Positions 801-30,698 of a stretch of DNA of 34,391 bases are shown piece after piece. Made by a program: the position numbers and the translations under genes. The DNA is taken from positions 1 to 34,391 of the IMG/VR virus record IMGVR_UViG_3300026270_000014; one strand, 5' to 3'. The notes below the pieces were generated by a model. The model searched no databases. It saw only the letters and a program-made list of their open reading frames with translations, and was not told the origin of the DNA. Position 1 is the stretch's first letter. Every line of letters begins with the position of its first letter. This stretch comes from a virus. Its lineage: Duplodnaviria > Caudoviricetes.

Positions 801-808
801 TATTTATT
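801..808 (-). promoter_or_regulatory. Late-promoter-like element AATAAATA
   Basis: One mismatch to the T4 gp55 consensus TATAAATA; 6 nt upstream of the ATG at 794. Confidence 0.55.
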
Positions 809-3800
809 CAGGTGCATTTGTCGGCTCATCCGCTATGAATCTAGCCTGTTGAGTCGTAGAAGCCTGTAATCCTTTACCATTTGCTGGATTACCGTCTTTA
901 CCCGTGTACCAAACCTGTCCTTTCTTATGTAAGATTTTAACCTGTGTGCCAGATGCTGGAGCAGTGCTTAAAGTAACTGCTGTTGTCGATCCGTCCACAG
1001 AATAGTTAATAGTTGATCCATCCTCGCTAGTAAGCAACAATCGTTGGCCACCAATGAATATGTCTAACTCACTAGCAGAGGCTGGGGTTTGTGATAGTGC
1101 AAACGTCTGTGTACTGCCATCACCTGTGAAAGTGTTGGTGTGTACTGTGTCTGCATAAGGTATGGTTTGAGTACCGGACGCATCTACCACTTCAGCGCCT
1201 GATCCATGTGCCTTAATTCCTGTACCAAGTGTACCACGTCTAAGTTGTCCTAAACGATTGTTTGTCTTGGTGAAATATTCAATTCTTTCTTTGTCGATAA
1301 AGATTACACCTGGTGCATTGGCTGTTATGTCAGGTGTGGATAATATGCTTCCATCTTTGACCACTATTGTTTTATCTCCATCAACTATATCTTGTGTTAA
1401 TTCTGTTGTAGCATTTTTGTTAATACGTTTGTAGAAAGTTCTATTCAACATATCTTTGAATATTCTAAATCCTGTGGCTCCTGTTGCCGATTCCATAGCA
1501 AAATACAATACATCTAATCTATCTGAAGCAACTATCGTTATGCCGTACACTGTGATTGTATTGCCACTTAACATGAAATCCTTACCTTGAATTAATTGTT
1601 GTCCATTCAACCATACATAAGTGTATGATGCGTTCAGTGGTTCAAATCTTAATTTAAATATTCCGTTAGTTCTTCCTTCTAAAACTTCTCTTCTATGTTT
1701 CATTCCAAGTGCATTATTGAATGTTGTGATTGAAAGTTTATCACCTGCTGTTAATGAATAAGGTGTTGTAATTCTGCTTGGAATTAAAATTACAGAAGTT
1801 GGATTAGAACCATCTATAAAATATTGATTATCAACTAATGTAGAAATACAAATAACATCTGAGGATGTCGGCACTGATTCCACAGTGAAAGTTATATTTT
1901 GATTTCCTATGTCAACATCATAATCAGCACCATAGAATTGCGGAGTACCGTTTACAAATACTTCAACTTGATTTTGGTTAGTTATAGTTTTTGCCGGATC
2001 CACTGTTGAATCATCATCAAGTCCCGACACAACTCCGTAAGTATATGTGCTTCCATCACCAATGTAATAAGTGTTGTCAGGTCCTCTTAACACCCTACCA
2101 TTACATTCTACAGTTGTCAAACTAGAGAATGGTCCAATCGCCCCTGCAGGATAAGTCAAATCCATTCTTGTTGTAGAACCATCGTAAGTTAATTCTTCAT
2201 TTCTAATACTTGCATAACTTCTTGTGCTAATGGCCGTTCTGGCAAAACCTGCCACTTGTATAAATGCGTTTGCCGCCGGAGCAGTATTGAATGTTACTTG
2301 CAATCTTTTCGCTACACTTTTTGTTGTAAATTGTGTGGTAGGTACACCGTCTACTGTAATGTAGATTTCAGATGCTGTTGAGTCGAGTGAGAAATCATCA
2401 CTAGTAGCAGTGGTGTAAGTGACAGTGCTTCCATCACCTGTGTATTGATCCAACACTCTATAATTTTCTCCACTTATTGCGAATACTTTTATTGTTACAA
2501 CACTTAGATTTGCAGGCGCAGATCCAAAAGTAATTGTTTTATTTTTTACATCTACTGTATAATGTGTTGTAAGTTTTTTCACAACTCCATCACAACTTAC
2601 TGTTACTGAACCTAATGTGCCTGGTGTGTCACCGATAGCAAACCTTACAGTCGATCCATCACCAATGTAATTGTTTTCGCTTATGAATGGTACACCAGAT
2701 TCTGGTGAAGTATAAACTTTGATATCCACTGTGTCAAACATCTGTCCAGGAACTGTTTCTTCAGGTGCGTAACTTGTATCCGGACTAATAAAATCATCAC
2801 CTTCTAATAATATATCACTAGGAGCATGACCTAAAGCACTTGTAAACAAACCTCCCTTGACTATCGAATCTAAAGTTCTATCGTCAGTCGGTGTTAGTAC
2901 ACCGTCTTCATCAAACGGAATAAATTCAACCAATGTACCATCTGCTGGAGCAGAAGTTAATGTGACCGTTTTTGTAGTACCGTCGCCTCTGAAATGGTCA
3001 ACTGTTGTACCTGAAGGATCTAAAACATTAACTTTGGTACGTGTTTGATTAATTTTTGTATACACTTGATAAACTTTTGTACTATCAGGTGCTGTGCTGA
3101 ATGTAAACTGCGTTGTAGAACCATCACCACTGAATGTTACAATGTTTGATGCTCCATAATTGTCCCATGGAAAATCGTACCAACCTGATCTATCCCAACC
3201 TTGATCTTGTGAGAATAATAATCCTGTCACCATTGTTCCACCGTAATCAACACCTGTCATTACTTGTGATAGTTCATTTCCTGGCATACCAGATCCCGGC
3301 GTGTAGAAACCTTTAGTTCTATCTGCCGCAGTTAAACCTACTTCGTCTCCACGCACTTTGTAAACATTTCCAATGTTATCATCAAAATCTTTTGTCGAAG
3401 TAAAGGCACTTGTTGCTTTGTATAACTGATTGTTATGTCTGATTAGATCTCCATATGCAAAATATGTAGATGCTGTCCAATCTTTTACTCGTGAAGTACT
3501 TGATACTCTATCAAATTTAATTGTTGTATCAAAATCCCTTACGAGATCATTGTTAAGATTTGCGTATGCTTTTGCAGTGTTAGATGGAGTATTCCCATTT
3601 TTCAAACCGCCTGTCAAAATAACTGTTGGTGTTGTTGTGTAATTAGAACCTGTGTCAGTTAAAGTAATTTTTGTTACTTTACCTCCTTGAATTATTGCTG
3701 TTGCTTTTGCTGATGTAGTATTTGGAGCAACATACATTTTGAATGTGCCTGACTTATTGCTTTGTGCATGATTAGTAGAACCTGTTGGCATATAGAATGT

Positions 3801-6800
3801 GCCTGATATATCATCAAACGTATGTGTATGTGCAGTTCCACTTCCGCCATTTTGTGAGTCATATATTTTTGCTTGTTGTTCGCTTGTGAACAATGGATAA
3901 TAATATCCAAAACTACCCGATGTAGCACCGCTTGAACTTGTGCCTTGTATTTGGAATGGACCTGTACTGCCCACTGTGCCGCCTAATATTGTTACTTCTG
4001 GAGCAACCTCATATCCCGATCCTGCACTTGTAATTGTAATTGAAGATACATATTTTTTATGATAATCATTCCACATCTGATGAGGATATTCCGTCAACTT
4101 GTCAGTGTCCACATCAACATTTAATGGTCTAATTTTTTTAGTAGTTGTGTCGTAGAATGGCGGATTGTCAAAGTCACTAAACAAACCATCCTGTGTATCA
4201 CTGCCAGAATATGTAAGTTTGTATTCCCTTAATTTTGTATGGAATGGTTTAACTTCTTTGATGTAACTTTCAATCCAAGCATCTGTGCCAGTTTCATAAC
4301 TTTTTCTCTGATCTAATTCTCTGACAGAGTTTTTAACATTTATAAAAGATGTTTTGAATACCCAATCAACATAAGTTTGCTCTGCAAGGACTTTTCTTAA
4401 ACCAGTAAAGAATAAAGTGTTGTATTCACCAGCAAGATCGTTAATAAACAAGTCATCTCTCAATGCTGTCAAAATCATTCTCGTTTCTTTTGCAGGTTCT
4501 TGGTCAAAGAAATTTTCATCAAAAGTATCTTGGCCTGCGAATCCAGTTGCATCCTGTGAATAATCATAAAGTTTTGTTGATAATCTTATTGTACCGTTTT
4601 CAGTTCCGGTGTTTTCCCATCCTGATGTTGTTTTTGTAAACAATTTCCATCCACCCGTGTCAGCACTTGTTACTTTAACATTTTTGCCCGGTACTAAATC
4701 TAAACCATCTAATTCGTATTCGAAGGTAACTTGTTTATCAATTAGTGTTGTTTCACTATACCCTTCTTTGTACCAATCTGTGTAGTTCCAATAATTAGAA
4801 GTGTTATAAGTCTGTAATTTTGTTCTAGACCATATAGATCCGTCCCAAGTGTATATTGCCCAAAAGTTGTTTGATGTTTCATCTGCTTTTACAAGATATT
4901 TTACAGTGCCCGATAGGTCTGCTGTATTGATATATGTAAGTTCAGCATAAGTGTCAACTATTGCGTCCCATTCTAAACTTTGTGCAGTAGGCTCAGGTTC
5001 TTTCGAATCCAGATTGTCTAGGTTTATCTGTCCAACTAATTGACGTTGTTTTAGAACTGTATTTGCATAGTCAATGATTTCTTTTAGTGCACCAAATCGG
5101 TCAATGTACCAACTTTGCCTTGGACGTATGTTGTTTCCATATCTTTGATTCAATGGTAAGTCTAAATCTGGTACCTTGTCACCAGCACTATTTGAACCTA
5201 TCAGTGAATCCCACCAACGTGTTTCGATTTGTGTTCCGGGTCTATAATCTTTATCTCCCTCTCTAGCAAGTTTCCATACTGAGTGTGAATCACCCTCATA
5301 GTCATTTGATCTTATATCAACACTTAGAATTATATCACCATTGACTAAATTTGCCACGTTCCATAAAATAAATTTGTTTCTATTCGTAATTGCGTAATAT
5401 TTTATATCATATCTTTTTGGATCTCGAATTAGATTTGCAATATATGCCACTGTGTTATTTCTTTTGACAACACTGTCCATTGGCATACTTGCTTTGTCTT
5501 TGACCCAGTAGTAATAATAGTCTACAAATGTATCAAGTCTAGAATCATACTGTTGTTTTACTGTGTATTTGTTAATGTCTAACACTGTTCCTGTTATAGT
5601 GCCACCTGGTGTGTTAGATTGTATGTTATATTGTTCTGGAGTTAAAAGAGATTCTGTCCATTCGTAAATGTCTATACTAGACCCAGGAAAAGTTTTACCC
5701 CAATTATTAATCTTGTATTCTTGAGAACCTTGTTCATACCATAACCATTTAACTTTTGATAGATCCCACCACACTTCACCTAAATGTTCTCTGCCCCATG
5801 GCGTTTTAGTATTGGCGTTATCTCCTGTATTGTATACTGCCGGATCCCAATTGGTTTTAATATTGATTTCTCTGTCTGCTATTCCTAGTATTCTTCCTTT
5901 GATAGGATCATACAGGTCATAATGGTCTCTTATTTCTTTTGATCTATTATCGAATTCAAAAACTTGTCCTACTTTTGAAATATCAATTAACGGAGTTTCA
6001 GTAACAATATTCTTCCATGCATACTTGCCATTTTCTTTTAAATCAAAAATAGTTACAGTTCCGTCGTTCACTATTTTCGTACTTCCGTCTGCTCCTACAT
6101 TACCGTCATCTTTGGGTGCTCCAACAAATACTGAATTGTCTATTGCACATACCCCTCTGCCAAAATCATCCATTGCTGAAACGTTATCAGTCATTAGTCT
6201 ATCATCAATAACAAATTTTGTGTTGTACATAGTGGCTGTGTATGCTCCGCCTGATTGTATATTGTTATCAACCACTGATGTATCTTGTAAATCAAATGTT
6301 GTTGCTCCTGCATCAAAATTCATTTCTCGTGGACTTGCAAAACTTTCAGCACCTATAACTAATCTATTTCCTGCAGGATTTATTGCAAGTGTAGTTCCAA
6401 ACTTCATATTAGTTTGTGAGTCTGGTGCATTAACAGTTTGTTGTAATGTGTAAGTGTTTGTGGAACCGTCTGCATTCCATTTGTAATAATAAATTGCTCC
6501 AGCATCTGCTTGGTCTGATTTATCAACACCTGGAGCACCTATTATTAAAGTGTTTCCATCTTTGCTCATTGCAATCGAGTCACCAAATGCAGTGTTAGCC
6601 GTTGAACCATCTGATGTTACACCTGTAAGTGTTTGAGTTAGAGTAAATGTTGTTGCTGAACTTCCGTCTGCTCCAGATCTTACAAATATTTCTACCTTGC
6701 CTGCATTTCCTGGTGCTAATGAACTTACTGCAAGTACATCGCCGTTATCGTTGGCTTGTATTCTGTGTCCAAATCTTTGTCCGCTACCACCTGCTGGTGC

Positions 6801-9800
6801 TTCTAGTGTGTAATCTTTTGTCCATCTGTCATATGTTGAACCGTCTGATCCTACTCCCCAAGTGTACACATAGACCCTACCTTTATCACTGCTGTGTCCT
6901 GGTGCTGATACAAACAAATATTTTTGTGCTGTATCTCTTGTAGAACTTGTGCCAGACTCTGTAATTTTATGTGCCCAACCAAAATTCTGTGAGGCCGCAT
7001 CTACTGGCGGTAAAAGTGTTGACAATGTTCCGTATTTGAATGTGCTTGGGTTCCAAACAAAAGTTTTTATTAAACCAGCATCTGCAAATCTTGTGCTACC
7101 ATCTGATCCTAATGAATTTGTGTACGGTCCACCTGCAACAACAAAGTTTTCATCTGTACTCATCGACAGAGATTCTCCTAATTTTCCTGTGGAATCATTT
7201 CCAGCAGTAGTTGTGATTGTTGACTGCGTTTCAAACACACTGCCTGATGTTGCTTCTCTTCTAAATAAGAAATTAATTTTTCCTTGCCCGTCACCAGGAG
7301 ATGATACAACTACTGTTCTTCCATCATTCCTAGCAACAATTTGTTGTCCAAAGTTTTGTTCCGCTGTTGAACTATCAGGCGATAACTGAACTTTTATATT
7401 GTATGGATCTTGTTTTTGATATACTCTCCATAAACCTGAATGATCAGCATCAGTCCAAATTCTGTCACCAGTATATCCTACCGCAGGTTTTTCATCTTGA
7501 TAATCACTGTATTTTAACAAATCATTTACATTATCTATTGAATTAAATCTTACCGAAATAAATTTATAAACATTTCCAAAAGAATCTGCTGTGGATTCAT
7601 CTGAAACATTTTCTACAAATGGAGTGTTTAAGGCAAAATCTATCACAATCGTTTTGTGATCTACAACAGAAAATACTTCGTATACTCCATTTAAGGACGG
7701 AGTTTTTGCGTTTGTTATTGCAAAATAGTCTGCTAAACTTGTTGTTGTTCCTGCTGATAGGCCATGTGAATCAGTAAATGTAATTTCTAATTGTGTAGCA
7801 TCGTTAATTCTTTGTAAATTTTTAATTTTGTAATCTTGATTCGTAAGTCTATACACGTCCCAATCATTGTTAGATTTGTTTGCTACCCATATCAATTCAT
7901 TTTGCGTAACTTTAGTAACATCTAGTTTCAATAGATCCACTTCATTAAATGCTGTGTGGTGCACGTGTTCAACTTGTGGATATCCCGCAGTTTTGTAAAC
8001 CTGTGCATGGTCTCTTGTGACTCCTTCTTTTGTGTAGTCTAATCTGCTAAAAGTTTTTGATGCATCATAATCTACAGGCTTGTAGAACATATCGCTTTTA
8101 ACTATTGCATCTGATCTAGCATATTCAACTGTTTCATTGGAAGTGTTTAATAATTCAAAACTGTTTGGATTTGCTGTAATCTTATCGTCATCTAAACGTA
8201 TTTGGATATTTTCAATCCTATCAACGTTTCCAAATTGTCCTGTTTTCAACATCCATTCTGGATATAAATCAAGACTAATGTCTTGTTCTTCATATTTGGC
8301 TTTAAGTAATCTATCTATTGCGTTTTTTGTACCTTTTTCTCTGATATATCCTTGATAAAATTTATACTGAGATACATCATTTACAAAAAGATTTTCTAAA
8401 TAATCTCTAGATTGATAACCAATAAGTCTTTGTGCTAACTTCTGCTGAGATTCATCAAAGTTGTTTGTTTCTAAATTATAAAAATCATTAAACTGTGATA
8501 TCTTATAATCAAAGTTTGGTATTAATTGTGCTCTTGGTTTAGCATTTTTCAATATCCAGTTTGCGTTATCAAATTTGTTACCCGATCCATGATTAATTTT
8601 TGCAACGTAAAACTTGCCTTGATATTCTACGCTGTCACCTATCTTGTAATCCGTGTTTGCTGTCCAGTATGTAACGTTTGCCGAATCAAACATAAAACCA
8701 GGAGCATAGTAATCGCCATTCCATCCGCCTGTTTTCCAACCTACAACTTTTAATCTTTGCTGTCTAAAACCTGTAGTAGGTTCATGTATAATATCTGCAA
8801 ACACTGTTTTATTATCAAAAATAATAATGTGTTCTTTTTGAACGGTATTCAATATTATATTGTATAGTCCAGTGTTTTCATCTTTGATTTCAATATCAAA
8901 AGTTTTACCTATTCTTTTTGTTGATACTTGTCTTATTGGAATTTTTCTTCCACCTGCATCTAGTAATGAATAGTCACCTGCTAAATTTCTAAGTTTGCCA
9001 ACAATCGAATTCTCTGTATCTAATTCAAAACCTTGTGCGGCAGGTGAAACTGTAATTGCAGATCCAGGTGCCCATTCTTGCGTAGTCCAAAATAAAAATT
9101 CTTTTACAGCGTTTTGCCAATTTAATGTTTCTTTGATTTCATTTGAGTACTTGTTAAATTTAAATCCTTGCTCTTCTAAATAAGATCCATAACCTAAAAG
9201 AAAGTCTGCAACTTCCTGAATTGTATCGAAAATGTAACCGTAAGGTATTGTTTGAACAGTATCTTTAAAGTCATTGTAAGTTACAACCTCTACAGATCCT
9301 TCTACTTTTAGTTTGTTACCAATTGATGTTTTAACAGGATATTTAAATTTGAAATATGGTTTTACTGTTGAGTAACCTAATACCTTGTATCCACCAAGTA
9401 ATGTCGAACCGTCATGTGAAACATCTGTGTTCTTTTCTATAAGCACACCGGAATACGTAAAAGACTGTACCGGATTAGATGTTCTAAATAATATTTTGTA
9501 GTTTTCATCTGGAATAAATTTAGATCCAGATGTTGATCCAGGTGATACAGAATCTGTCAATACTTTTAAATTATCTTTATCTGTAAAGCCACCTAATTTA
9601 TACGTAAGTTGTGTTGTAATGTTTGACATTTTTTTATAATAAAAAGTGTCTGCATCTAAATTTTTTGAAATTAGATAGTTTACAATAATAGGTTGATAGC
9701 CTGCTGTGAGATATGTTGTTGTTTCTCCAGTTGCATTATCTGTGATTGTCTGCAAATGGTATTTTGCATTCTTAAGGCTTCTTCTAATCTCAGTTTCCGT

Positions 9801-12800
9801 GTCAATTTGGTTACCGGCAATGTTTGTTGACTGTCTAGACGGATCAAACATATTTGAAAAGAATCTTGCAGGTTGCGTTAAAGCCAATGTTTTCATCACA
9901 GTAAATGGATAAGCGGATGATCTTATCCAAGCAGTTTCTTGTGGTGCTTGGTCACCAAATTTCCAACTTGATCTTCTGCCTGGAATATCTAAAACATCTA
10001 TCAATCCGGCGCTGATAGGATCTAATAAATTTCCTGAAGCATCGACTGGCAAATAGTTTTTAATATCTGGCTTGCCATATCTTCCTGTTTTTGTTGCAAT
10101 AGCAGTCCACAATACATCGTTTCCTGATGTGTATGGTGCAGTGCCATAAGTTTTATCCCAATTACTAGGTTTCTCAGAATGACCTAACATCTCCCATGGT
10201 CTGACATGGGGTGCATCTGTGTCATAGAAATATTTGTATATCGCCCTCCAGTACCCCGGTAATTTTTCTTTTTTAATTCTGTCGGTACTGTTTGCATAAT
10301 TGTATGTAAAAGGTGAACCTTCTGAAAACGTGGTGTTGTTAATGTATTGGACATTGTTACGTCCTGCCCATACATGGAAATCTGATGCCATCACATCATT
10401 TATTTCACCAAGTGTAAAATCTGTAGAAGTAAACACACTTGGCATCACATCGGATATGTTGGTCAGTGTGCTATCATATTCAGTTTTAATATTGTTGTAA
10501 ATTCTTCTTTCTAGTTCTATAATTAAATCATCTCTCTCATCACCGTATGCTTTAATAAATGATCCGTCATGCCTTCTAATCATGTTTGTTGTTGTAATGT
10601 ACGTGTCATCTGAAATTATTTCTGGTTTGTATTTCGGATACATACCTAGTTTTGTAGGAGAAGGTGGCAAGTAACTACCTTTTGTATCTGAGTAGTCCTT
10701 AATTACAATTTTATCTCCTTCTGCTAGTGATCTAGTAACTGTTATACTATCATCTACTGTACTGAATGTGTAATCTGTTCCTAATATTAAAAGTTCATCA
10801 TTTAGATAAATGTAAACCGCTCTATTGCTTAATTTTGTAATGTCGAATTGCGAATCAATAGCATAATCAGTTTGAGATGATCCTGCAACAGTATGTGTTC
10901 TTGTTGAAACATTTTCTCCCCAGCCTAACATATCTTCGTAGAAGAATGGAAAAGAACTTGTTCTGCCTTGCGTGATTGCTGTGACAATTTCGTCTACTCT
11001 ATCTCTTGCAACTCCTTCATATGCTGTATCTGTAGCATGAGTTAAAAATGCACTATACCATTTTTCGTATTCTAAATTAGCATAATCTATTGCTGAAACA
11101 AAATTAGATTCTCTATCTACCAAACTAAAAATAGCCGGAATCAATGATCCCTCGTGTTGAAGTATTGTTCCACCTTTTAATTTTGCATCAGGTTTGTCTC
11201 TTAGATTAGATGTGCCAGGTATTTGGCCAGTTACATCTTGATTTTTATCAAAGATATCTTGGACGTGTTTTAATATTTGTCCATATGTAAATGTACCTAA
11301 TGATGCGTTTTCACTGTTTATAGATAAGTTTTCCGGCACTTCATAAATGCCTTTGTCTTTTATTTTTTTTGCAGAACTATATCCAGCAATTCTTATTTGA
11401 TCACCTTCTGTTAATTCTTTATTAAATTTTACATATTTGTTTGTTGTTCCATCTACCAGTGTGTAATCAGTGTTTATTGTTTTTCTGACGCCATTTACTT
11501 TTACTGATACTTCTAAGTCAGTCAATGACGAAGAATCTTTATAAAAATCTATTGCAAATAATTGCGTTTCTGTAGAGTCAACTATGTATGTTCTAATAAC
11601 TCTTTGTTTGCTTTTGCTTGTTCTTTTTACCCAAGGTCCCAGATAGTTTGTTACTTTTGCCAAAGTTGAATAGTGCAAATGTCCTGACGCTAATCTTTTG
11701 GATACCGTGCCTTTTCCTAGTTTGTAAGTGAAAGAATCGGACGTATGATCAGATTTGAAAACTATATTTCCTACATTATTAATTGTTTCATATTTTACTT
11801 TGATTCCAAGCACTGTATCTTCAACAGCAGAATCGCTTGTAGCAAATGAAAATATTTCTGCTCCAGCAAAAGTAGAACTTGGATATTTTATCGGATCATC
11901 TAGATCTACGTGCTGTTCATCATGCAAATTAAACAATGGCTGTTGATTTAATTTTGTTTTTTGTTGTGCATCCGCCCAACGGCTTGTACTATCATCGTAA
12001 TATAAAGTTTTGCCTTGGTGTGCTGTACCAAACTCTATAAAGATAGAATCGTTTGCAGAAGGTGTACCATCTGTTGCTTTGGTAAGCGAAATCACTTGCG
12101 TGGAATCTCCCGCTGTAACAAAAGCCACATCATAAATTGTTCCATTCACTAGTGGATCTGTGTCGTTGGCGAAAATTACTCGCATACCATCCGCAAGTGC
12201 AAGTCCATCAACAATATAACCTGTTTGTTTTACAACCTGTGAAAAAGCGTCTGTTGTAGTTGTGTCATATAAAGTTACAGACTTTTTAGCAACCTTACCG
12301 TGATTGTATAGTTCTAGTCCAGAATCGAATTCAATAATTGGTCTTTTCGCTCTGTCATTTTCATCTAGGACAGGTGTGTACCCACCAACCCTTGCTGTTT
12401 CTTCAATAACAGATTTGTGAAACCATCTATTATATCTCGACCAAGCATTTTGATCACGTGAGTCTCTTTTGATTGTAATGTAATCTTTATCCTTAGGAGT
12501 ATAAAATGATTTCGCATATGGCCTTGTGTCATATCCTACTGTGTCATAAAGTATTGTGGTTTCTTCAGAATATGATGCTGGTGTAATTAAATCATCTACG
12601 TCTGTAAGGGTAATGTTTTCTCCCACACCTTCCACATAGTATTGTTTGTCTTTGTACTCCGGAGCAACTATGTTGTCATCAAATTTTATTTTCATTCCAT
12701 TTGATAAATCTAATGTTCTTAAACTGTAATTTTTTACCCCAACGATATCATCTTGTGGTTTTATTTTCGCAGTAGATGTTACGTCTTTGATTTGTAATAT

Positions 12801-13661
12801 ACCATACATAGAATCATGATTGCCGCATTGGTAGTACAATGTTGCAGGTCCAGTTGCAGGAACTGTGAATGTTACAGTACCATAGTCTGTTCCGTTGTTT
12901 GTTACACCAGTTGAATAAATTGTTGACGTCGAACCGTCTTCACTAATTTTTGATTTATAAGGTTCTGTCATTATCCATAAAGGATGACCTTTTGCGTTTA
13001 CTTCAAATTTATAAGTGTTTCCTCTGTATAAAGTTAATATAGGATTTCTTTCATTCTCTCTGTGTGGCAAGTGCCAAGCACCTAATGAACTACCATCATC
13101 AGGCCATGCTTCAACTTTATATTCTGCAACTGCATTCGGTCCAACTGAATCTAATGATATTACACTAGGTCCAATCGGCATCCAATAGTATTCTCTGTAA
13201 TTGATTAACTTGTCATAATCTATTGCTGGATTCCAAGAGTAAACATTTTCTTTTGATATTCTATCATGATTATCTATGTTACCACCTAAAAATTTTATTT
13301 GATTAATATAATCGTCGTATGTTCCTGTAAACTTGACTTGGTCCTCAGGATTAAGTGATGTTGTATCTCTATCTGTGTAAGTTACCGCTGGCTCCAATTG
13401 ATAAGCCATTCTGTCTCTTGACGTAGCAGAAATATATCTGTCTGTTTCTTTCCTTGTGCTGGCATCTTGTCTGCCTATGAAACCATCAAGTCTTTCTAAT
13501 GCTCCTTTTTGTACTAGAGGATCTAATGTACTTCCTAAAAATCTTTGGTTGGAGTCTGTTCTATAAAAGGCAGGTAGATGTTGTACAGTTCTTTTGTATT
13601 CATTCTTGCCCTGTTTGACAACTTCGTTATTTGTTAATGAATTGATTTGTCTATCTGCCAT
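804..13661 (-). CDS. Giant multidomain virion/baseplate protein (4285 aa) with cupredoxin-like domain, FG-GAP-like beta-propeller and GDGST-type repeat modules
   Basis: Uninterrupted 12.9-kb ORF directly after the gp6-like wedge (the gp7 position). FG...GAP repeats at ~6030-7385. GHP...YYQCGNHDSM at ~12790-13046. Repeated (F/Y)xGDGSTxxF...V.VNG modules at ~900-3140. Confidence 0.8.
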   Translation of the reverse strand: MADRQINSLTNNEVVKQGKNEYKRTVQHLPAFYRTDSNQRFLGSTLDPLVQKGALERLDGFIGRQDASTRKETDRYISATSRDRMAYQLEPAVTYTDRDTTSLNPEDQVKFTGTYDDYINQIKFLGGNIDNHDRISKENVYSWNPAIDYDKLINYREYYWMPIGPSVISLDSVGPNAVAEYKVEAWPDDGSSLGAWHLPHRENERNPILTLYRGNTYKFEVNAKGHPLWIMTEPYKSKISEDGSTSTIYSTGVTNNGTDYGTVTFTVPATGPATLYYQCGNHDSMYGILQIKDVTSTAKIKPQDDIVGVKNYSLRTLDLSNGMKIKFDDNIVAPEYKDKQYYVEGVGENITLTDVDDLITPASYSEETTILYDTVGYDTRPYAKSFYTPKDKDYITIKRDSRDQNAWSRYNRWFHKSVIEETARVGGYTPVLDENDRAKRPIIEFDSGLELYNHGKVAKKSVTLYDTTTTDAFSQVVKQTGYIVDGLALADGMRVIFANDTDPLVNGTIYDVAFVTAGDSTQVISLTKATDGTPSANDSIFIEFGTAHQGKTLYYDDSTSRWADAQQKTKLNQQPLFNLHDEQHVDLDDPIKYPSSTFAGAEIFSFATSDSAVEDTVLGIKVKYETINNVGNIVFKSDHTSDSFTYKLGKGTVSKRLASGHLHYSTLAKVTNYLGPWVKRTSKSKQRVIRTYIVDSTETQLFAIDFYKDSSSLTDLEVSVKVNGVRKTINTDYTLVDGTTNKYVKFNKELTEGDQIRIAGYSSAKKIKDKGIYEVPENLSINSENASLGTFTYGQILKHVQDIFDKNQDVTGQIPGTSNLRDKPDAKLKGGTILQHEGSLIPAIFSLVDRESNFVSAIDYANLEYEKWYSAFLTHATDTAYEGVARDRVDEIVTAITQGRTSSFPFFYEDMLGWGENVSTRTHTVAGSSQTDYAIDSQFDITKLSNRAVYIYLNDELLILGTDYTFSTVDDSITVTRSLAEGDKIVIKDYSDTKGSYLPPSPTKLGMYPKYKPEIISDDTYITTTNMIRRHDGSFIKAYGDERDDLIIELERRIYNNIKTEYDSTLTNISDVMPSVFTSTDFTLGEINDVMASDFHVWAGRNNVQYINNTTFSEGSPFTYNYANSTDRIKKEKLPGYWRAIYKYFYDTDAPHVRPWEMLGHSEKPSNWDKTYGTAPYTSGNDVLWTAIATKTGRYGKPDIKNYLPVDASGNLLDPISAGLIDVLDIPGRRSSWKFGDQAPQETAWIRSSAYPFTVMKTLALTQPARFFSNMFDPSRQSTNIAGNQIDTETEIRRSLKNAKYHLQTITDNATGETTTYLTAGYQPIIVNYLISKNLDADTFYYKKMSNITTQLTYKLGGFTDKDNLKVLTDSVSPGSTSGSKFIPDENYKILFRTSNPVQSFTYSGVLIEKNTDVSHDGSTLLGGYKVLGYSTVKPYFKFKYPVKTSIGNKLKVEGSVEVVTYNDFKDTVQTIPYGYIFDTIQEVADFLLGYGSYLEEQGFKFNKYSNEIKETLNWQNAVKEFLFWTTQEWAPGSAITVSPAAQGFELDTENSIVGKLRNLAGDYSLLDAGGRKIPIRQVSTKRIGKTFDIEIKDENTGLYNIILNTVQKEHIIIFDNKTVFADIIHEPTTGFRQQRLKVVGWKTGGWNGDYYAPGFMFDSANVTYWTANTDYKIGDSVEYQGKFYVAKINHGSGNKFDNANWILKNAKPRAQLIPNFDYKISQFNDFYNLETNNFDESQQKLAQRLIGYQSRDYLENLFVNDVSQYKFYQGYIREKGTKNAIDRLLKAKYEEQDISLDLYPEWMLKTGQFGNVDRIENIQIRLDDDKITANPNSFELLNTSNETVEYARSDAIVKSDMFYKPVDYDASKTFSRLDYTKEGVTRDHAQVYKTAGYPQVEHVHHTAFNEVDLLKLDVTKVTQNELIWVANKSNNDWDVYRLTNQDYKIKNLQRINDATQLEITFTDSHGLSAGTTTSLADYFAITNAKTPSLNGVYEVFSVVDHKTIVIDFALNTPFVENVSDESTADSFGNVYKFISVRFNSIDNVNDLLKYSDYQDEKPAVGYTGDRIWTDADHSGLWRVYQKQDPYNIKVQLSPDSSTAEQNFGQQIVARNDGRTVVVSSPGDGQGKINFLFRREATSGSVFETQSTITTTAGNDSTGKLGESLSMSTDENFVVAGGPYTNSLGSDGSTRFADAGLIKTFVWNPSTFKYGTLSTLLPPVDAASQNFGWAHKITESGTSSTRDTAQKYLFVSAPGHSSDKGRVYVYTWGVGSDGSTYDRWTKDYTLEAPAGGSGQRFGHRIQANDNGDVLAVSSLAPGNAGKVEIFVRSGADGSSATTFTLTQTLTGVTSDGSTANTAFGDSIAMSKDGNTLIIGAPGVDKSDQADAGAIYYYKWNADGSTNTYTLQQTVNAPDSQTNMKFGTTLAINPAGNRLVIGAESFASPREMNFDAGATTFDLQDTSVVDNNIQSGGAYTATMYNTKFVIDDRLMTDNVSAMDDFGRGVCAIDNSVFVGAPKDDGNVGADGSTKIVNDGTVTIFDLKENGKYAWKNIVTETPLIDISKVGQVFEFDNRSKEIRDHYDLYDPIKGRILGIADREINIKTNWDPAVYNTGDNANTKTPWGREHLGEVWWDLSKVKWLWYEQGSQEYKINNWGKTFPGSSIDIYEWTESLLTPEQYNIQSNTPGGTITGTVLDINKYTVKQQYDSRLDTFVDYYYYWVKDKASMPMDSVVKRNNTVAYIANLIRDPKRYDIKYYAITNRNKFILWNVANLVNGDIILSVDIRSNDYEGDSHSVWKLAREGDKDYRPGTQIETRWWDSLIGSNSAGDKVPDLDLPLNQRYGNNIRPRQSWYIDRFGALKEIIDYANTVLKQRQLVGQINLDNLDSKEPEPTAQSLEWDAIVDTYAELTYINTADLSGTVKYLVKADETSNNFWAIYTWDGSIWSRTKLQTYNTSNYWNYTDWYKEGYSETTLIDKQVTFEYELDGLDLVPGKNVKVTSADTGGWKLFTKTTSGWENTGTENGTIRLSTKLYDYSQDATGFAGQDTFDENFFDQEPAKETRMILTALRDDLFINDLAGEYNTLFFTGLRKVLAEQTYVDWVFKTSFINVKNSVRELDQRKSYETGTDAWIESYIKEVKPFHTKLREYKLTYSGSDTQDGLFSDFDNPPFYDTTTKKIRPLNVDVDTDKLTEYPHQMWNDYHKKYVSSITITSAGSGYEVAPEVTILGGTVGSTGPFQIQGTSSSGATSGSFGYYYPLFTSEQQAKIYDSQNGGSGTAHTHTFDDISGTFYMPTGSTNHAQSNKSGTFKMYVAPNTTSAKATAIIQGGKVTKITLTDTGSNYTTTPTVILTGGLKNGNTPSNTAKAYANLNNDLVRDFDTTIKFDRVSSTSRVKDWTASTYFAYGDLIRHNNQLYKATSAFTSTKDFDDNIGNVYKVRGDEVGLTAADRTKGFYTPGSGMPGNELSQVMTGVDYGGTMVTGLLFSQDQGWDRSGWYDFPWDNYGASNIVTFSGDGSTTQFTFSTAPDSTKVYQVYTKINQTRTKVNVLDPSGTTVDHFRGDGTTKTVTLTSAPADGTLVEFIPFDEDGVLTPTDDRTLDSIVKGGLFTSALGHAPSDILLEGDDFISPDTSYAPEETVPGQMFDTVDIKVYTSPESGVPFISENNYIGDGSTVRFAIGDTPGTLGSVTVSCDGVVKKLTTHYTVDVKNKTITFGSAPANLSVVTIKVFAISGENYRVLDQYTGDGSTVTYTTATSDDFSLDSTASEIYITVDGVPTTQFTTKSVAKRLQVTFNTAPAANAFIQVAGFARTAISTRSYASIRNEELTYDGSTTRMDLTYPAGAIGPFSSLTTVECNGRVLRGPDNTYYIGDGSTYTYGVVSGLDDDSTVDPAKTITNQNQVEVFVNGTPQFYGADYDVDIGNQNITFTVESVPTSSDVICISTLVDNQYFIDGSNPTSVILIPSRITTPYSLTAGDKLSITTFNNALGMKHRREVLEGRTNGIFKLRFEPLNASYTYVWLNGQQLIQGKDFMLSGNTITVYGITIVASDRLDVLYFAMESATGATGFRIFKDMLNRTFYKRINKNATTELTQDIVDGDKTIVVKDGSILSTPDITANAPGVIFIDKERIEYFTKTNNRLGQLRRGTLGTGIKAHGSGAEVVDASGTQTIPYADTVHTNTFTGDGSTQTFALSQTPASASELDIFIGGQRLLLTSEDGSTINYSVDGSTTAVTLSTAPASGTQVKILHKKGQVWYTGKDGNPANGKGLQASTTQQARFIADEPTNAPE

Positions 13662-28261: not shown

Positions 28262-28453
28262 ATGTCACAGACACACGAAAGTATCATGAGTGAGATCCAA
28301 GCATACTCTGAAGAGAACGGAAAGTTCACAGAGAAAGGTGTTAAGGCTTCTGCAACTAGAGCCAGAAAAGCACTTGCTAATCTTTCAAAATTGATCAAGT
28401 TAAGAAGAAAAGAAATTCAAGAGGCTAAAAACGCGGCGAAGACAGCGGCGTAA
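28262..28453 (+). CDS. Histone H1-like (Hc1-family) small basic protein (63 aa)
   Basis: KFTEKGVKASATRARKAL...K..RKEI resembles the Hc1 N-terminal pattern (KF.EKGNKAAG.RARK.S). Strong AGGAG RBS at 28247-28251 and its own terminator. Confidence 0.75.
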   Translation: MSQTHESIMSEIQAYSEENGKFTEKGVKASATRARKALANLSKLIKLRRKEIQEAKNAAKTAA

Positions 28454-28477: not shown

Positions 28478-28511
28478 AAACCCTCGGCTTTAACCAGTCG
28501 GGGGTTTTTTT
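28478..28511 (+). terminator. Rho-independent terminator after the Hc1-like gene
   Basis: Stem AAACCCTCGGCT/AGTCGGGGGTTT (12 bp including two G-U) with a T run at 28505-28511; lies between convergent genes. Confidence 0.85.
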
Positions 28512-28917
28512 ATGACTTGAGGATTCCTTTACCGTGTACTCTCACACGTATATGACCATTATAATAATCGTTTGATTCTAAAACCTTACGTGCAAACTGT
28601 TCACGTGCTTCTACATAGGATAATTCTGCTTTTGACTTGCAGTAGAAAAGTATTTCTCTTGTGAATTTGTCTTTACCAAGTTTGTTGACATCGATTGTCA
28701 AATCATCACTAGATCCATAATAGTCCTGCCAGTCAGAATCAACTTTGTATCTACGCTTGTTCTTTCTGCCTTTTAGTGGTGGACGAGATCTTTTGAATCT
28801 TGCTAGTTTTTTCCCAATGTACTTCCTACCGTTGGTTGTATTTGTTATGAGATAAACAAATCCCACAACATCTTCCGGCATATTGGTAATTTCATTTCCT
28901 TGGTATGTCCAATGCAT
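28510..28917 (-). CDS. Stand-alone GIY-YIG endonuclease (135 aa from the ATG at 28917)
   Basis: GFVYLITNTTNGRKYIGKK, YYGSS, FTREIL, candidate catalytic E (YVEAREQF) and YYN. The ATG at 28917 (MHWTYQG) lies 5 nt after a TTTAAATA late-like box and is preferred over the TTG at 28935. Confidence 0.85.
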   Translation of the reverse strand: MHWTYQGNEITNMPEDVVGFVYLITNTTNGRKYIGKKLARFKRSRPPLKGRKNKRRYKVDSDWQDYYGSSDDLTIDVNKLGKDKFTREILFYCKSKAELSYVEAREQFARKVLESNDYYNGHIRVRVHGKGILKS

Positions 28918-28940
28918 AACGGTATTTAAAGCCAAAAAGA

Positions 28941-28971
28941 TTGACCAACATTTTTATCTGTGTTATATAGT
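28941..28971 (+). promoter_or_regulatory. Sigma70-type promoter pointing into the non-coding structured region
   Basis: TTGACC (28941-46), 17 nt, TATATA (28964-69) preceded by TGn (extended -10). Confidence 0.6.
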
Positions 28972-28974
28972 AGT

Positions 28975-29402
28975 TGAAGGGCAACCGTATCCTTCCGCCA
29001 GGCACAACAGGCAAACAAATTTCAAATAGGCAAACATAGCATCGCAACCAGTGAGCAGGGAAATGCGGCTAACAAGCGACAGGTGAATCCCTTGATGCAC
29101 ACAGCAAAAAATGATGAGGCTCTGAGAAACAGCAACCTCAGGTTTACTGTAGATTATCATACAAAGATGCAGTAGGCTCGCGTTGGATAGTATAAGTTAA
29201 CGGGTACAGCACAACCGCCCGGCGATAGCAACGATGTATGGTGACTGCGAACTCAGTACACGGGTTAAAGTCGATACTGCTAGAAATAGCAGTATTGTGA
29301 CTGCTCATCTAGTACAGCAGGCGCATACGTTAAAAAAATGCGTTTGCGTAAATTAAAAAAGGAAACGAGCGTAAGCGAAGTTTCAGATGACGTAAGTCAT
29401 CT
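28975..29402 (+). ncRNA. Putative large structured non-coding RNA (~430 nt), class unassigned
   Basis: No credible ORF; visibly more GC-rich than the flanks; at least nine stems; GNRA loops (GAAA, GUAA x2); several G-U pairs that work only on the + strand; upstream promoter. Confidence 0.65.
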
Positions 29403-29425
29403 CACAGCATGAATTAAGTACTTGC

Positions 29426-30199
29426 ATGGAACTACTTTTCGATCACACTTTCGGCAAACAGGAACAACAGGATCTAGTAATATGTAGACCCATGGCCATA
29501 GTTGATGAGGATGAAGAAGCGGAAGCCATCGACAAGGGTTGGCTCGCATTGGATCATCCTGTGGCCAACAGGCCTGAAGTTTTTTATCAATCACGTAGCA
29601 CACGAATTGACCTAGACAAATTCCGTCCTCGCTACAAATCGCACACCCACAACGGCAAAGAGATCGGCGTAAAAGTTATCGACGCAAGTGAAATGGTTAG
29701 GCTTTTGGGACTGCCGCAAATATACAAGCAGTACATGGAGAGAAAAAAATTTGGCGCGGATTACAATCCTTTCGGCCACTATCACAAACGTGATCAGTTC
29801 ATGCTGTTCTACACAGGCACAGCAGATAACATCATAGGATTTACCAAACAGAAACGATACAGATATCAAGAAGAAAACTATTCTACCATAGACACATATG
29901 ACTCCCAGGATCTTGCCGGGTTGGAGAGTGTCATCCATGCCAACACCGTTCCCGTATCAGACATCACGTTGGATTTGGAGATCCAGTGGGCCAGCAACAA
30001 TTATGTGAGATATTTCTACATGGGATCAGGCTATGAACAGTCATCTGAATACAAAGCCAATTATCGAGGATTCGAGTGGTGGACTGGCACAGAATGGAGC
30101 ACCAATAAAAAACAGTACAAACGATTGTGTAGGAGGGACAGTAAACTTACTGATTTTTCTTCTCTCGGAAACCTTTCACTGATTCCAGATAATCTTTAG
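29426..30199 (+). CDS. Arginyl-tRNA-protein transferase (ATE1)/Bpt-like aminoacyl transferase (257 aa)
   Basis: N-terminal AIDKGW...YQSRSTRIDLDKFRP resembles ATE_N (L..GW/F...RI....F.P). C-terminal YFYMGSGYEQSSEYKANYRGFEW resembles ATE_C (Y.YLGY.I.....M.YK..F.P.E). Confidence 0.65.
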   Translation: MELLFDHTFGKQEQQDLVICRPMAIVDEDEEAEAIDKGWLALDHPVANRPEVFYQSRSTRIDLDKFRPRYKSHTHNGKEIGVKVIDASEMVRLLGLPQIYKQYMERKKFGADYNPFGHYHKRDQFMLFYTGTADNIIGFTKQKRYRYQEENYSTIDTYDSQDLAGLESVIHANTVPVSDITLDLEIQWASNNYVRYFYMGSGYEQSSEYKANYRGFEWWTGTEWSTNKKQYKRLCRRDSKLTDFSSLGNLSLIPDNL

Positions 30200-30698
30200 A
30201 CCAATTTTTGTAGTAAGGTCCCGCTTCCAACATCTTGGCGAACTTGTTCAATTTGGATAGACGTTGTGCTAGTATCAATGTGTATGAACCATTGTTCAAT
30301 TTGACTGTGCCCACGTGTTCCGGATCCTCTGGATGGTCTTCCAATATGACAACATCCTTGCTCATGAAATAATTGTTGAGATCTTCTGCTATCTTTTTGG
30401 TTTCCTTCAGACTAAAATGATCCGGTTGTGCTATCTGCACCAATACATCGATCTCATCAAAGTCTGCTTCTGTTATGTGTTGGTACACTGTGGCATAATC
30501 GGCCACACTATCCAGTTCTAAAAATTTTACTTTGTTTTCCAACATGGCCTTCCTGGCAAACGGGCAAGGTGGCAAATCGCCAAACACAGGATTAGGTTTG
30601 GTCACAAAGTCGTCGATCCACTGTGTTATAAACTCAGTAGGACTATTCGCTGTCTTGTTCTGTGTCTTCTGGTTCTGTTTTTTCTGTTGAGTCGTCAT
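30147..30698 (-). CDS. DUF1415-like hypothetical protein (183 aa)
   Basis: WIDDFV...LPPCPFARKA and EDHPEDP motifs resemble the DUF1415 W...V...LCPFA / FHP pattern; start uncertain. Confidence 0.55.
   Translation of the reverse strand: MTTQQKKQNQKTQNKTANSPTEFITQWIDDFVTKPNPVFGDLPPCPFARKAMLENKVKFLELDSVADYATVYQHITEADFDEIDVLVQIAQPDHFSLKETKKIAEDLNNYFMSKDVVILEDHPEDPEHVGTVKLNNGSYTLILAQRLSKLNKFAKMLEAGPYYKNWSKDYLESVKGFREKKNQ

Follow-up and report, generated by a model that had tools for sequence, protein, structure and literature searches.

What occupies the longest gene-free gap of this phage DNA? The gap, positions 28936–29425, lies in a stretch of 34,391 nucleotides, IMGVR_UViG_3300026270_000014 (the whole of it is called the window below), which is a fragment of a T4-like jumbo phage with 9% completeness. 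An earlier reading by eye (the original prediction) had placed here, in a gap free of open reading frames (ORFs), an unassigned, possibly undescribed structured plus-strand RNA of about 430 nt that has a promoter of its own. Our comparisons support the core of that proposal, with promoter activity as a prediction: the gap evolves as a doubly knotted plus-strand non-coding RNA, preceded by a promoter-like site and belonging to no Rfam family. Many giant bacteriophages carry this RNA family, often in several copies per genome. As to its function, we think it on balance probable that the element is an RNA-primed, R-loop replication origin, like ColE1 RNA II in working and not detectably homologous to it.

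A doubly pseudoknotted non-coding RNA

Two short minus-strand ORFs overlap the gap and are open in just 5 and 4 of 42 aligned relatives; since their reading frames are not conserved, they were ruled out as genes. The nine helices proposed by eye are all present, as is the TTGACC-17-TGnTATATA site, and the 11-bp helix does include four G-U pairs. Compared with 100 shuffled sequences the plus strand folds well (z = -2.72, 1 of 100 as good; minus strand z = -1.84), and 78 of 80 loci fetched through the neighbouring GIY-YIG protein hold the element at 72–98% identity, so that folding energy and conservation both bear out the predicted RNA. A structure of 80 pairs with two pseudoknots has 97.2% of its cells paired over 42 full-length copies, with 29 pairs changing on both sides; none of 500 shuffles matches the real alignment and slid controls reach 30–39%, a support that is strong but is not a probability, as the structure was derived from the same 42 related sequences.

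The two pseudoknots are what the original list of helices lacked. Pseudoknot 1 joins 29156–63 to 29235–42 and is compensatory in 4 of its 8 pairs. Pseudoknot 2 is formed by GTTG pairing with a loop CAAC, a better reading of what had been drawn as a CGTTG/CAACG helix; its variable pair is of a standard type at 156 of the 171 distinct loci (G-C 114, A-T 30, G-T 9, T-A 3; locus L237 was left out), and in 10 of the 15 misses the search pattern had caught an earlier match. One locus (G001:C1:130520-131010) has a variant core with GCAGGT/ACCTGC instead of the GTTG/CAAC pseudoknot. It escapes the main motif, and the family is therefore larger than the counts given here. Rfam covariance models gave no match at gathering score for the window (best expectation value E = 7.8) or for five relatives, and found no RNase P, group I/II intron, tmRNA, GOLLD, ROOL, OLE or HEARO match; tRNA and tmRNA scans were blank as well, in agreement with the claim that it is none of tRNA, tmRNA, RNase P RNA and group I/II intron.

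The element is ordered as promoter, knotted core, twin 6–9-nt motif flanking a hairpin, AT-rich stretch and tail. All parts lie on the plus strand:

28941–28969, plus: sigma70-type promoter-like site, TTGACC-17-TATATA with extended TG (from the sequence)
28976–29038, plus: variable 5' leader with optional hairpin (28976–95) and AGGCA repeats (from alignment rows)
29039–29098, plus: 5' helical domain, GCATC/GATGC around AGGGA/TCCCT (97–100% of cells paired)
29110–29140, plus: TGAGG/CCTCA, a conserved helix that has AATGA at its entry and GCTCT..GAAA in its loop (99.5% paired)
29141–29178, plus: 11-bp hairpin whose loop, 29156–29163, makes pseudoknot 1 (10 of 13 pairs compensatory)
29182–29232, plus: pseudoknot 2 (GTTG 29182–85 with CAAC 29212–15) and helix (covariation)
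29235–29242, plus: 3' strand of pseudoknot 1 (99.7% of cells paired; 4 of the 8 pairs compensatory)
29243–29262, plus: module 1 with twin motif copy 1, AGTACA (29255–60), a putative DNA-invading loop
29269–29302, plus: hairpin separating the twin modules (97.4% paired, 3 compensatory pairs)
29298–29316, plus: module 2 with twin motif copy 2, AGTACA (29311–16), whose template strand is the putative target
29317–29361, plus: variable AT-rich stretch, candidate unwinding element and candidate RNA-to-DNA switch
29362–29402, plus: a pair of mini-hairpins, of which the first contains tandem G.A (GA-GC-GTAA-GC-GA, 29367–78), a candidate single-strand initiation signal

TTGAC is retained in 37 of 42 aligned rows, and the spacer and -10 region come in two types; on the RNA side, TATAAACA replaces the TATATA box in 27 of the 42 relatives. 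The leader has at least two AGGCA in 39 of 42 rows. Its hairpin at 28976–95, one of the helices noticed originally, is real in the window and belongs to this variable region, being present in 14 of 42 rows. Compensatory change affects 2 of 5 inner pairs of the 5' helical domain, for which other folds substitute in distant members; the TGAGG/CCTCA helix motif is seen again in distant members and in phage PA5oct. The family's most conserved motif, GGTACAGCACAACCGCC (29203–19), is borne by the helix at 29182–29232. The RNA proper probably measures about 340 nt, from 28976 to about 29320, rather than the 430 nt first proposed, and the last 45 nt or so may act as single-stranded DNA.

Twin motif, AT-rich stretch and tail hairpins

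The 3' domain has two similar modules, one on either side of a hairpin, which share a short motif. Among 367 parsed loci (7 others failed) there were 85 distinct copy pairs, 56 of them identical over six bases; when another locus's 6-mer was fitted instead, the match fell to 1.7%. The match between copies extends over 6–12 nt, and positions 0–4 of the copy are the least paired in local folds. The motif itself is highly variable: 43 different 6-mers occur across the family, some of uncertain register, and they change even between close relatives. A complementary partner within the RNA was sought and none found (15 of 67, against a null of 28%; 7 off-register rows were dropped from the partner and tail analysis). 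As no complementary segment in the RNA tracks the motif, its partner is outside the RNA, or is a protein.

A better test comes from genomes with more than one element. The G001 elements at 130.9 and 311.6 kb have different twins, ACATGA and AGATAG, and so do those of G003 at 92.6 and 217 kb (ACGAAA and GACAAG). Such differences within one genome are predicted by self-matching, and not by one protein or one tRNA per genome. Where the copies differ by a transition at positions 0–5, all 25 cases have G in copy 1 and A in copy 2, and none is A over G, C over T or T over C, a bias that fits pairing of RNA copy 1 with the template strand of copy 2, rG.dT wobble being allowed.

Beyond copy 2 the character of the sequence changes. 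In the 205 loci compared, AT makes up 72% of the following 40 nt, 61% of whole loci and 56% of the core, and GA-NN-GN(N)A-NN-GA mini-hairpins lie a median 62 nt beyond copy 2. This tandem-GA motif occurs on the RNA strand in 102 of 157 tails, on the antisense strand in 10, in the core in 0 and in shuffles in 2.25; in the larger set it was found in 117 of 205 loci, and the instance at 29367–78 is the only one on the plus strand within the window. G-T pairs make up 4.0% in distinct tail stems versus 14.4% in core stems, and GNA triloops close 36 of 99 tail stems versus 1 of 120 core stems, the core having 36 GNRA loops. The rules for hairpins thus switch from RNA-type to DNA-type after copy 2. 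The last two loops had been taken as GNRA loops of an RNA; the GTAA of the window fits either reading, and family-wide the tail hairpins are of the DNA types GNA and GNNA. The ColE1 record has a single GA-NN-GNA-NN-GA motif, at 1332; it is on the same strand as RNA II, about 135 nt beyond the origin, which presumably lies near position 1196; we take the 1332 site to be ssiA. GCGNAGC and GCGNNAGC are extraordinarily stable as DNA and far less so as RNA, and have been found at G4, ssiA and N4 priming or promoter sites (PMC13037366).

These features suggest how the element could work. The promoter would drive a transcript that folds into a two-pseudoknot pre-primer RNA and is likely to present twin-motif copy 1. 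This copy would base-pair with the DNA template strand of copy 2, and that pairing would seed an R-loop in the AT-rich stretch. The displaced strand would fold into DNA mini-hairpins, which are predicted to load helicase and primase. Every step from transcription in the window phage through RNA-DNA pairing, R-loop formation and priming to loading at the tail is put forward as a model drawn from the sequence features above. Among the functions named in the original prediction (ribozyme, scaffold, guide, sponge and RNA II-like pre-primer), it is the pre-primer that these data support best.

Occurrence, copies and neighbouring genes

Motif scans of viral records gave 119 stretches (about 240 estimated) and 114 more with a different outer pair; before counts were made, 14 of these 114 and 3 chromosomal loci were dropped by eye as chance, and L081 as a duplicate of the window. 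The metagenome scan gave 120 stretches, 72 with gp46, GIY-YIG or Hc1 and 14 with other jumbo-phage genes; the remaining 34 are loci of at most 1500 nt with no gene match. Marine metatranscriptome contigs contain the region, which shows presence, not strand, ends or level. Eight pattern matches were seen in bacterial chromosomes (GTDB): 5 are small contigs of metagenome-assembled genomes with phage genes, and 3, in which the other motifs are missing, were rejected as members. A strict architecture scan recovered the copies of the window and of G004 and one G001 copy, and missed other known copies; when the window RNA was compared by blastn with cultured phages and plasmids, only short chance matches came up. 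Many contigs among L001–L080 stop inside or beside the RNA, as would be expected if a conserved or repeated element breaks assemblies.

A complete-looking homolog is found in G002, a 39-kb phage record of 61% GC with terminal repeats (CheckV 51% complete). Among the 21 of its 36 ORFs compared with PHROGs and the 8 compared with Pfam, in a record that is 51% complete, there were genes for terminase, portal and capsid as well as for a resolvase and an SNF2 helicase; none for a polymerase, a primase or a Rep was found. A related jumbo phage (G005:C1), with a near-complete tRNA set, has a permuted tmRNA (tag ANAANDEVFALAA) and a CUA-anticodon tRNA, at 102749–103130 and 12922–12997.

By comparison of the late sigma protein, the nearest cultured relatives are PA5oct/MIJ3/Paride (48%), Phosso, Atu_ph07 and the Asteriusvirus group. 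Gene-poor gaps lie at the syntenic site in PA5oct, Phosso and EJP2, the last of which matches 62 phage records; none was seen in the stretch of Atu_ph07 inspected. Nine aligned examples show the order already described: a promoter, a hairpin-loop pseudoknot and a GTT/AAC pseudoknot with co-varying outer pairs, then a twin motif flanking a hairpin, an AT-rich stretch and a GNA tail. GAP32 has five copies, all on the plus strand, at 35.5, 99.1, 177.8, 261.8 and 341.0 kb. They are 53–84 kb apart, and random placement would give a smallest gap this large with p = 0.0045; the shared orientation alone says little, as 91% of GAP32 genes are on the plus strand. In PA5oct, paralogs of the gap are at 12.9 and 246 kb, and the 246-kb copy is ncRNA004, a scarce, early-biased transcript (PMC7318152) that ends at the AT-rich stretch, ahead of the tail. 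In Phosso (L495:8259-9660) the syntenic gap is 1 kb long and immediately precedes a gene annotated as RNase HI. This gap has the stretch CGTGCATGCCAG in common with the G002 element, and several of its mini-hairpins read GNA on the opposite strand. Finally, a GAP32-type element occurs in 2 of 5426 E. coli genomes. One of the two was inspected (L564:3959-13858): here the element, which retains promoter, twin motif and tail, sits in a roughly 10-kb island at ffs. The island has an IS3-interrupted integrase, a resolvase and DUF4326, DUF488 and dual-OB genes, and no annotated initiator gene. Kinship of the marine, GAP32-type and PA5oct elements is argued from synteny, topology and short motifs.

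The usual site is directly after gp46. To the left of the gap in the window are the late sigma gene, gp47, gp46, an Hc1-like gene and a SegE-type GIY-YIG gene, and baseplate genes flank the gap on both sides. The nearest neighbours are:

28510–28935, minus: SegE-type GIY-YIG gene (PF19835, E 9e-37), a usual, not obligate neighbour
29426–30199, plus: ATE_C/GNAT-like gene, 257 aa (a lead from the ESM Atlas only), neighbour of the RNA only in the window's subclade

Neither is bound to the RNA. The orientation of the GIY-YIG gene relative to the RNA differs among loci, and the G001 311-kb copy is far from gp46 and has no GIY-YIG gene. The upstream gene is on the same strand in 93 cases and opposite in 57, and the downstream gene on the same strand in 88 of 151 loci, opposite in 60 and absent in 3. 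With neighbours on either strand the RNA is not a leader, and with neighbours that vary, a leader of the ATE-like gene or a guide of the GIY-YIG protein was ruled out. The nearest Atlas clusters of the 257-aa protein bear ATE_C/GNAT families (aminoacyl-tRNA:protein transferase-like), and no match was found in Pfam, PHROG, the PDB or cultured phages. Its gene is often close to one for 183 aa (30147–30698 in the window). The Hc1 (chlamydial histone H1-like) gene at 28262–28453, plus strand (PF07432, E 2e-12), is conserved next to gp46 clade-wide and is followed by a strong terminator-like site at 28478–28507. TAAATA at 28923–28928 (minus), just upstream of the GIY-YIG gene and overlapping the RNA promoter region, is what we take to resemble a T4-type late promoter. 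Elsewhere in the window, 804–13661 (minus) encodes a virion structural protein of 4285 aa with FG-GAP and CBM5/12 matches.

Possible functions and known systems

Several lines of evidence favour an origin. The unit is found whole in the 39-kb phage and in the E. coli island, where no initiator gene was found or annotated; few tails have a terminator-like site (35 of 151) and the downstream gene may be on either strand. The five co-oriented, spaced copies of GAP32 and the RNase HI gene after the syntenic Phosso gap point the same way, as do the self-matching twin with its differing versions within G001 and G003, the DNA-type tail and the ColE1 motif at 1332. A number of observations weigh against it. 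Skew at fourfold sites places no origin at the element, with mixed signs in G001, G004 and G005, and the sign in G002 is terminus-like, the wrong direction (t = -5.3); skew in GAP32 is no stronger than at rotated positions (29 and 18 of 119 rotations as strong). GC and AT skew track the coding strand or are not significant, and T4-like recombination-driven replication may erase such signals. The G-over-A asymmetry is largely confounded, as the copy-1 G is predicted to pair in its own stem in 17 of 22 cases, leaving only about 5 unconfounded, and T over C, which wobble pairing would equally permit, does not occur at positions 0–5. All GAP32 and BF paralogs have CGTCAG, and the 121Q paralogs found have CGTCAA; twins shared by paralogs and differing between genomes hint at a shared trans factor or gene conversion. 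Furthermore, 88 of 205 loci do not have the tandem-GA motif, the three PA5oct copies found are unevenly spaced, profiles of the marine, GAP32-type and PA5oct families do not detect one another (best E 0.012), and the ColE1 origin gave no match to a profile built from 37 diverse members, whose best score (E 2.1) fell elsewhere.

What else could the element be? If it were a trans-acting scaffold or sponge, a dimeric protein of phage or host would bind the twin modules as its two sites, and the pseudoknotted core would build a ribonucleoprotein. The pseudo-symmetry of the modules around their hairpin, the single motif in all paralogs of GAP32, BF and 121Q, the AGGCA repeats of the leader and the presence of the region in metatranscriptome contigs would suit such a role, which we nevertheless consider unlikely: 43 different 6-mers shift between close relatives, motifs differ inside G001 and inside G003, PA5oct ncRNA004 is scarce (PMC7318152), and the DNA-type tail and even spacing are left unexplained. 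Less likely again is a transcription-activated DNA site for a recombination hotspot, genome positioning or packaging, with the same self-pairing R-loop and no priming. It shares the evidence for self-pairing and a single-stranded-DNA tail, and would agree with the usual position next to gp47/gp46 and resolvase genes and with a skew that marks no origin, but the order of promoter, RNA, AT-rich stretch and mini-hairpin parallels ColE1 and T4 oriF/oriG (PMC4412123, PMC3016281), and the G001 311-kb copy is distant from gp46.

The low pairing of copy positions 0–4 and the several triplets readable as codons or anticodons might instead indicate a tRNA-binding RNA with two codon-like (as in a T-box) or anticodon-like (decoy) loops, possibly serving the aminoacyl-transferase-like gene that adjoins it in the window's subclade. 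We find this very improbable: the copies match over 6–12 nt and not over a triplet, the reading frame is not fixed across families, no invariant U precedes the triplet, Rfam gave no T-box match and most members have no ATE-like neighbour. A new self-cleaving or processing ribozyme, in which the two-pseudoknot core would be the active site and the twin motifs the cut sites, is a shade less probable even than that; its compact double-pseudoknot core and near-invariant loop would be apt, but no internal guide complementary to the twin motif was found, there is no similarity to Rfam ribozymes, and the tail and spacing again go unexplained.

Returning to the RNA-primed origin, a wider picture can be sketched, though tentatively: a whole lineage of T4-like jumbo phages (marine, freshwater and cultured enterobacterial) might fire several spaced origins, each self-targeted by a double-pseudoknot RNA with a rewritable 6–9-nt address, and small phages and chromosomal islands might have captured the unit so as to be copied by the giant phage. 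If this wider picture holds true, it would add a third RNA-specified origin design to those of ColE1 and mitochondria, and possibly a programmable R-loop tool. We found no description in the literature of how replication starts in these 300–470 kb phages, and none of this RNA family or of such origins, although supplements of viral structured-RNA screens may list fragments. Viromes of sea and lake are rich in the element, and cultured E. coli phages have counterparts of it, which makes the question directly testable; it also offers a lead as to how small islands might exploit jumbo phages. What the present analysis contributes is the within-genome twin test, the RNA-to-DNA hairpin change, the bridge from marine to cultured phages and the match to ncRNA004.

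GOLLD, ROOL, OLE and HEARO are large, pseudoknotted, phage-associated RNAs of open function. The element is like them in these respects, and it differs in having no Rfam match, different neighbours and a DNA-type tail. Like the T-box riboswitch (RF00230), it is a folded RNA that exposes a short, variable motif; unlike a T-box, it has no Rfam match and is not the leader of one gene class, the downstream gene being opposite in 60 of 151 loci and a terminator-like site present in just 35 of 151, and its match is between two copies over at least 6 nt. PA5oct ncRNA004 is probably a distant member: it is the syntenic-gap paralog with a AAAGGATG..GCTCTGG..GAAACAGA motif, an AT-rich stretch and a tail. 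It differs in its 619 nt and in being undetected by the family profile, and the present work proposes a structure and a possible role for a known but unexplained transcript, for which the part of PMC7318152 covered here provides no structure, family or function. T4 oriF (uvsY) and oriG (34) consist of a promoter and then an unwinding element, with several origins per genome (PMC3016281). Our element shares the T4-like phage context, the several copies and, as sequence features, a promoter-like site and a downstream AT-rich stretch. T4 R-loops are reported to be independent of specific sequences (PMC3016281), whereas in the present RNA the motif matches itself and the tertiary fold is strongly conserved.

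ColE1 offers a further parallel. There a promoter gives a folded RNA whose rG stretch pairs with a template dC stretch in a persistent hybrid (PMC4412123), the displaced strand loads helicase (PMC5043065, PMC5935869), and ssiA, a single-strand signal, lies downstream on that strand (PMC5043065, PMC3167613). Unlike ColE1, our element has two pseudoknots, several copies per genome and a twin motif that is a variable 6–9-mer rather than a G run and has its partner some 56 nt away, and no profile match to RNA II; homology was considered on the strength of a few look-alike motifs seen by eye, and the profile search did not confirm it, so that the element does not count as a member of the ColE1 family. 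There was no plasmid blastn match of note, and no Rfam match to RNAI, although no search was aimed specifically at an antisense promoter or transcript. Like ColE1 RNA II with ssiA (n'-pas), a system that needs no initiator protein, it combines a promoter and a long folded RNA with a GA-GC-GTA-GC-GA motif on the same strand, a candidate RNA segment for pairing with template DNA, and strand-specific DNA-type mini-hairpins (102 of 157 tails) at which primosome loading is predicted.
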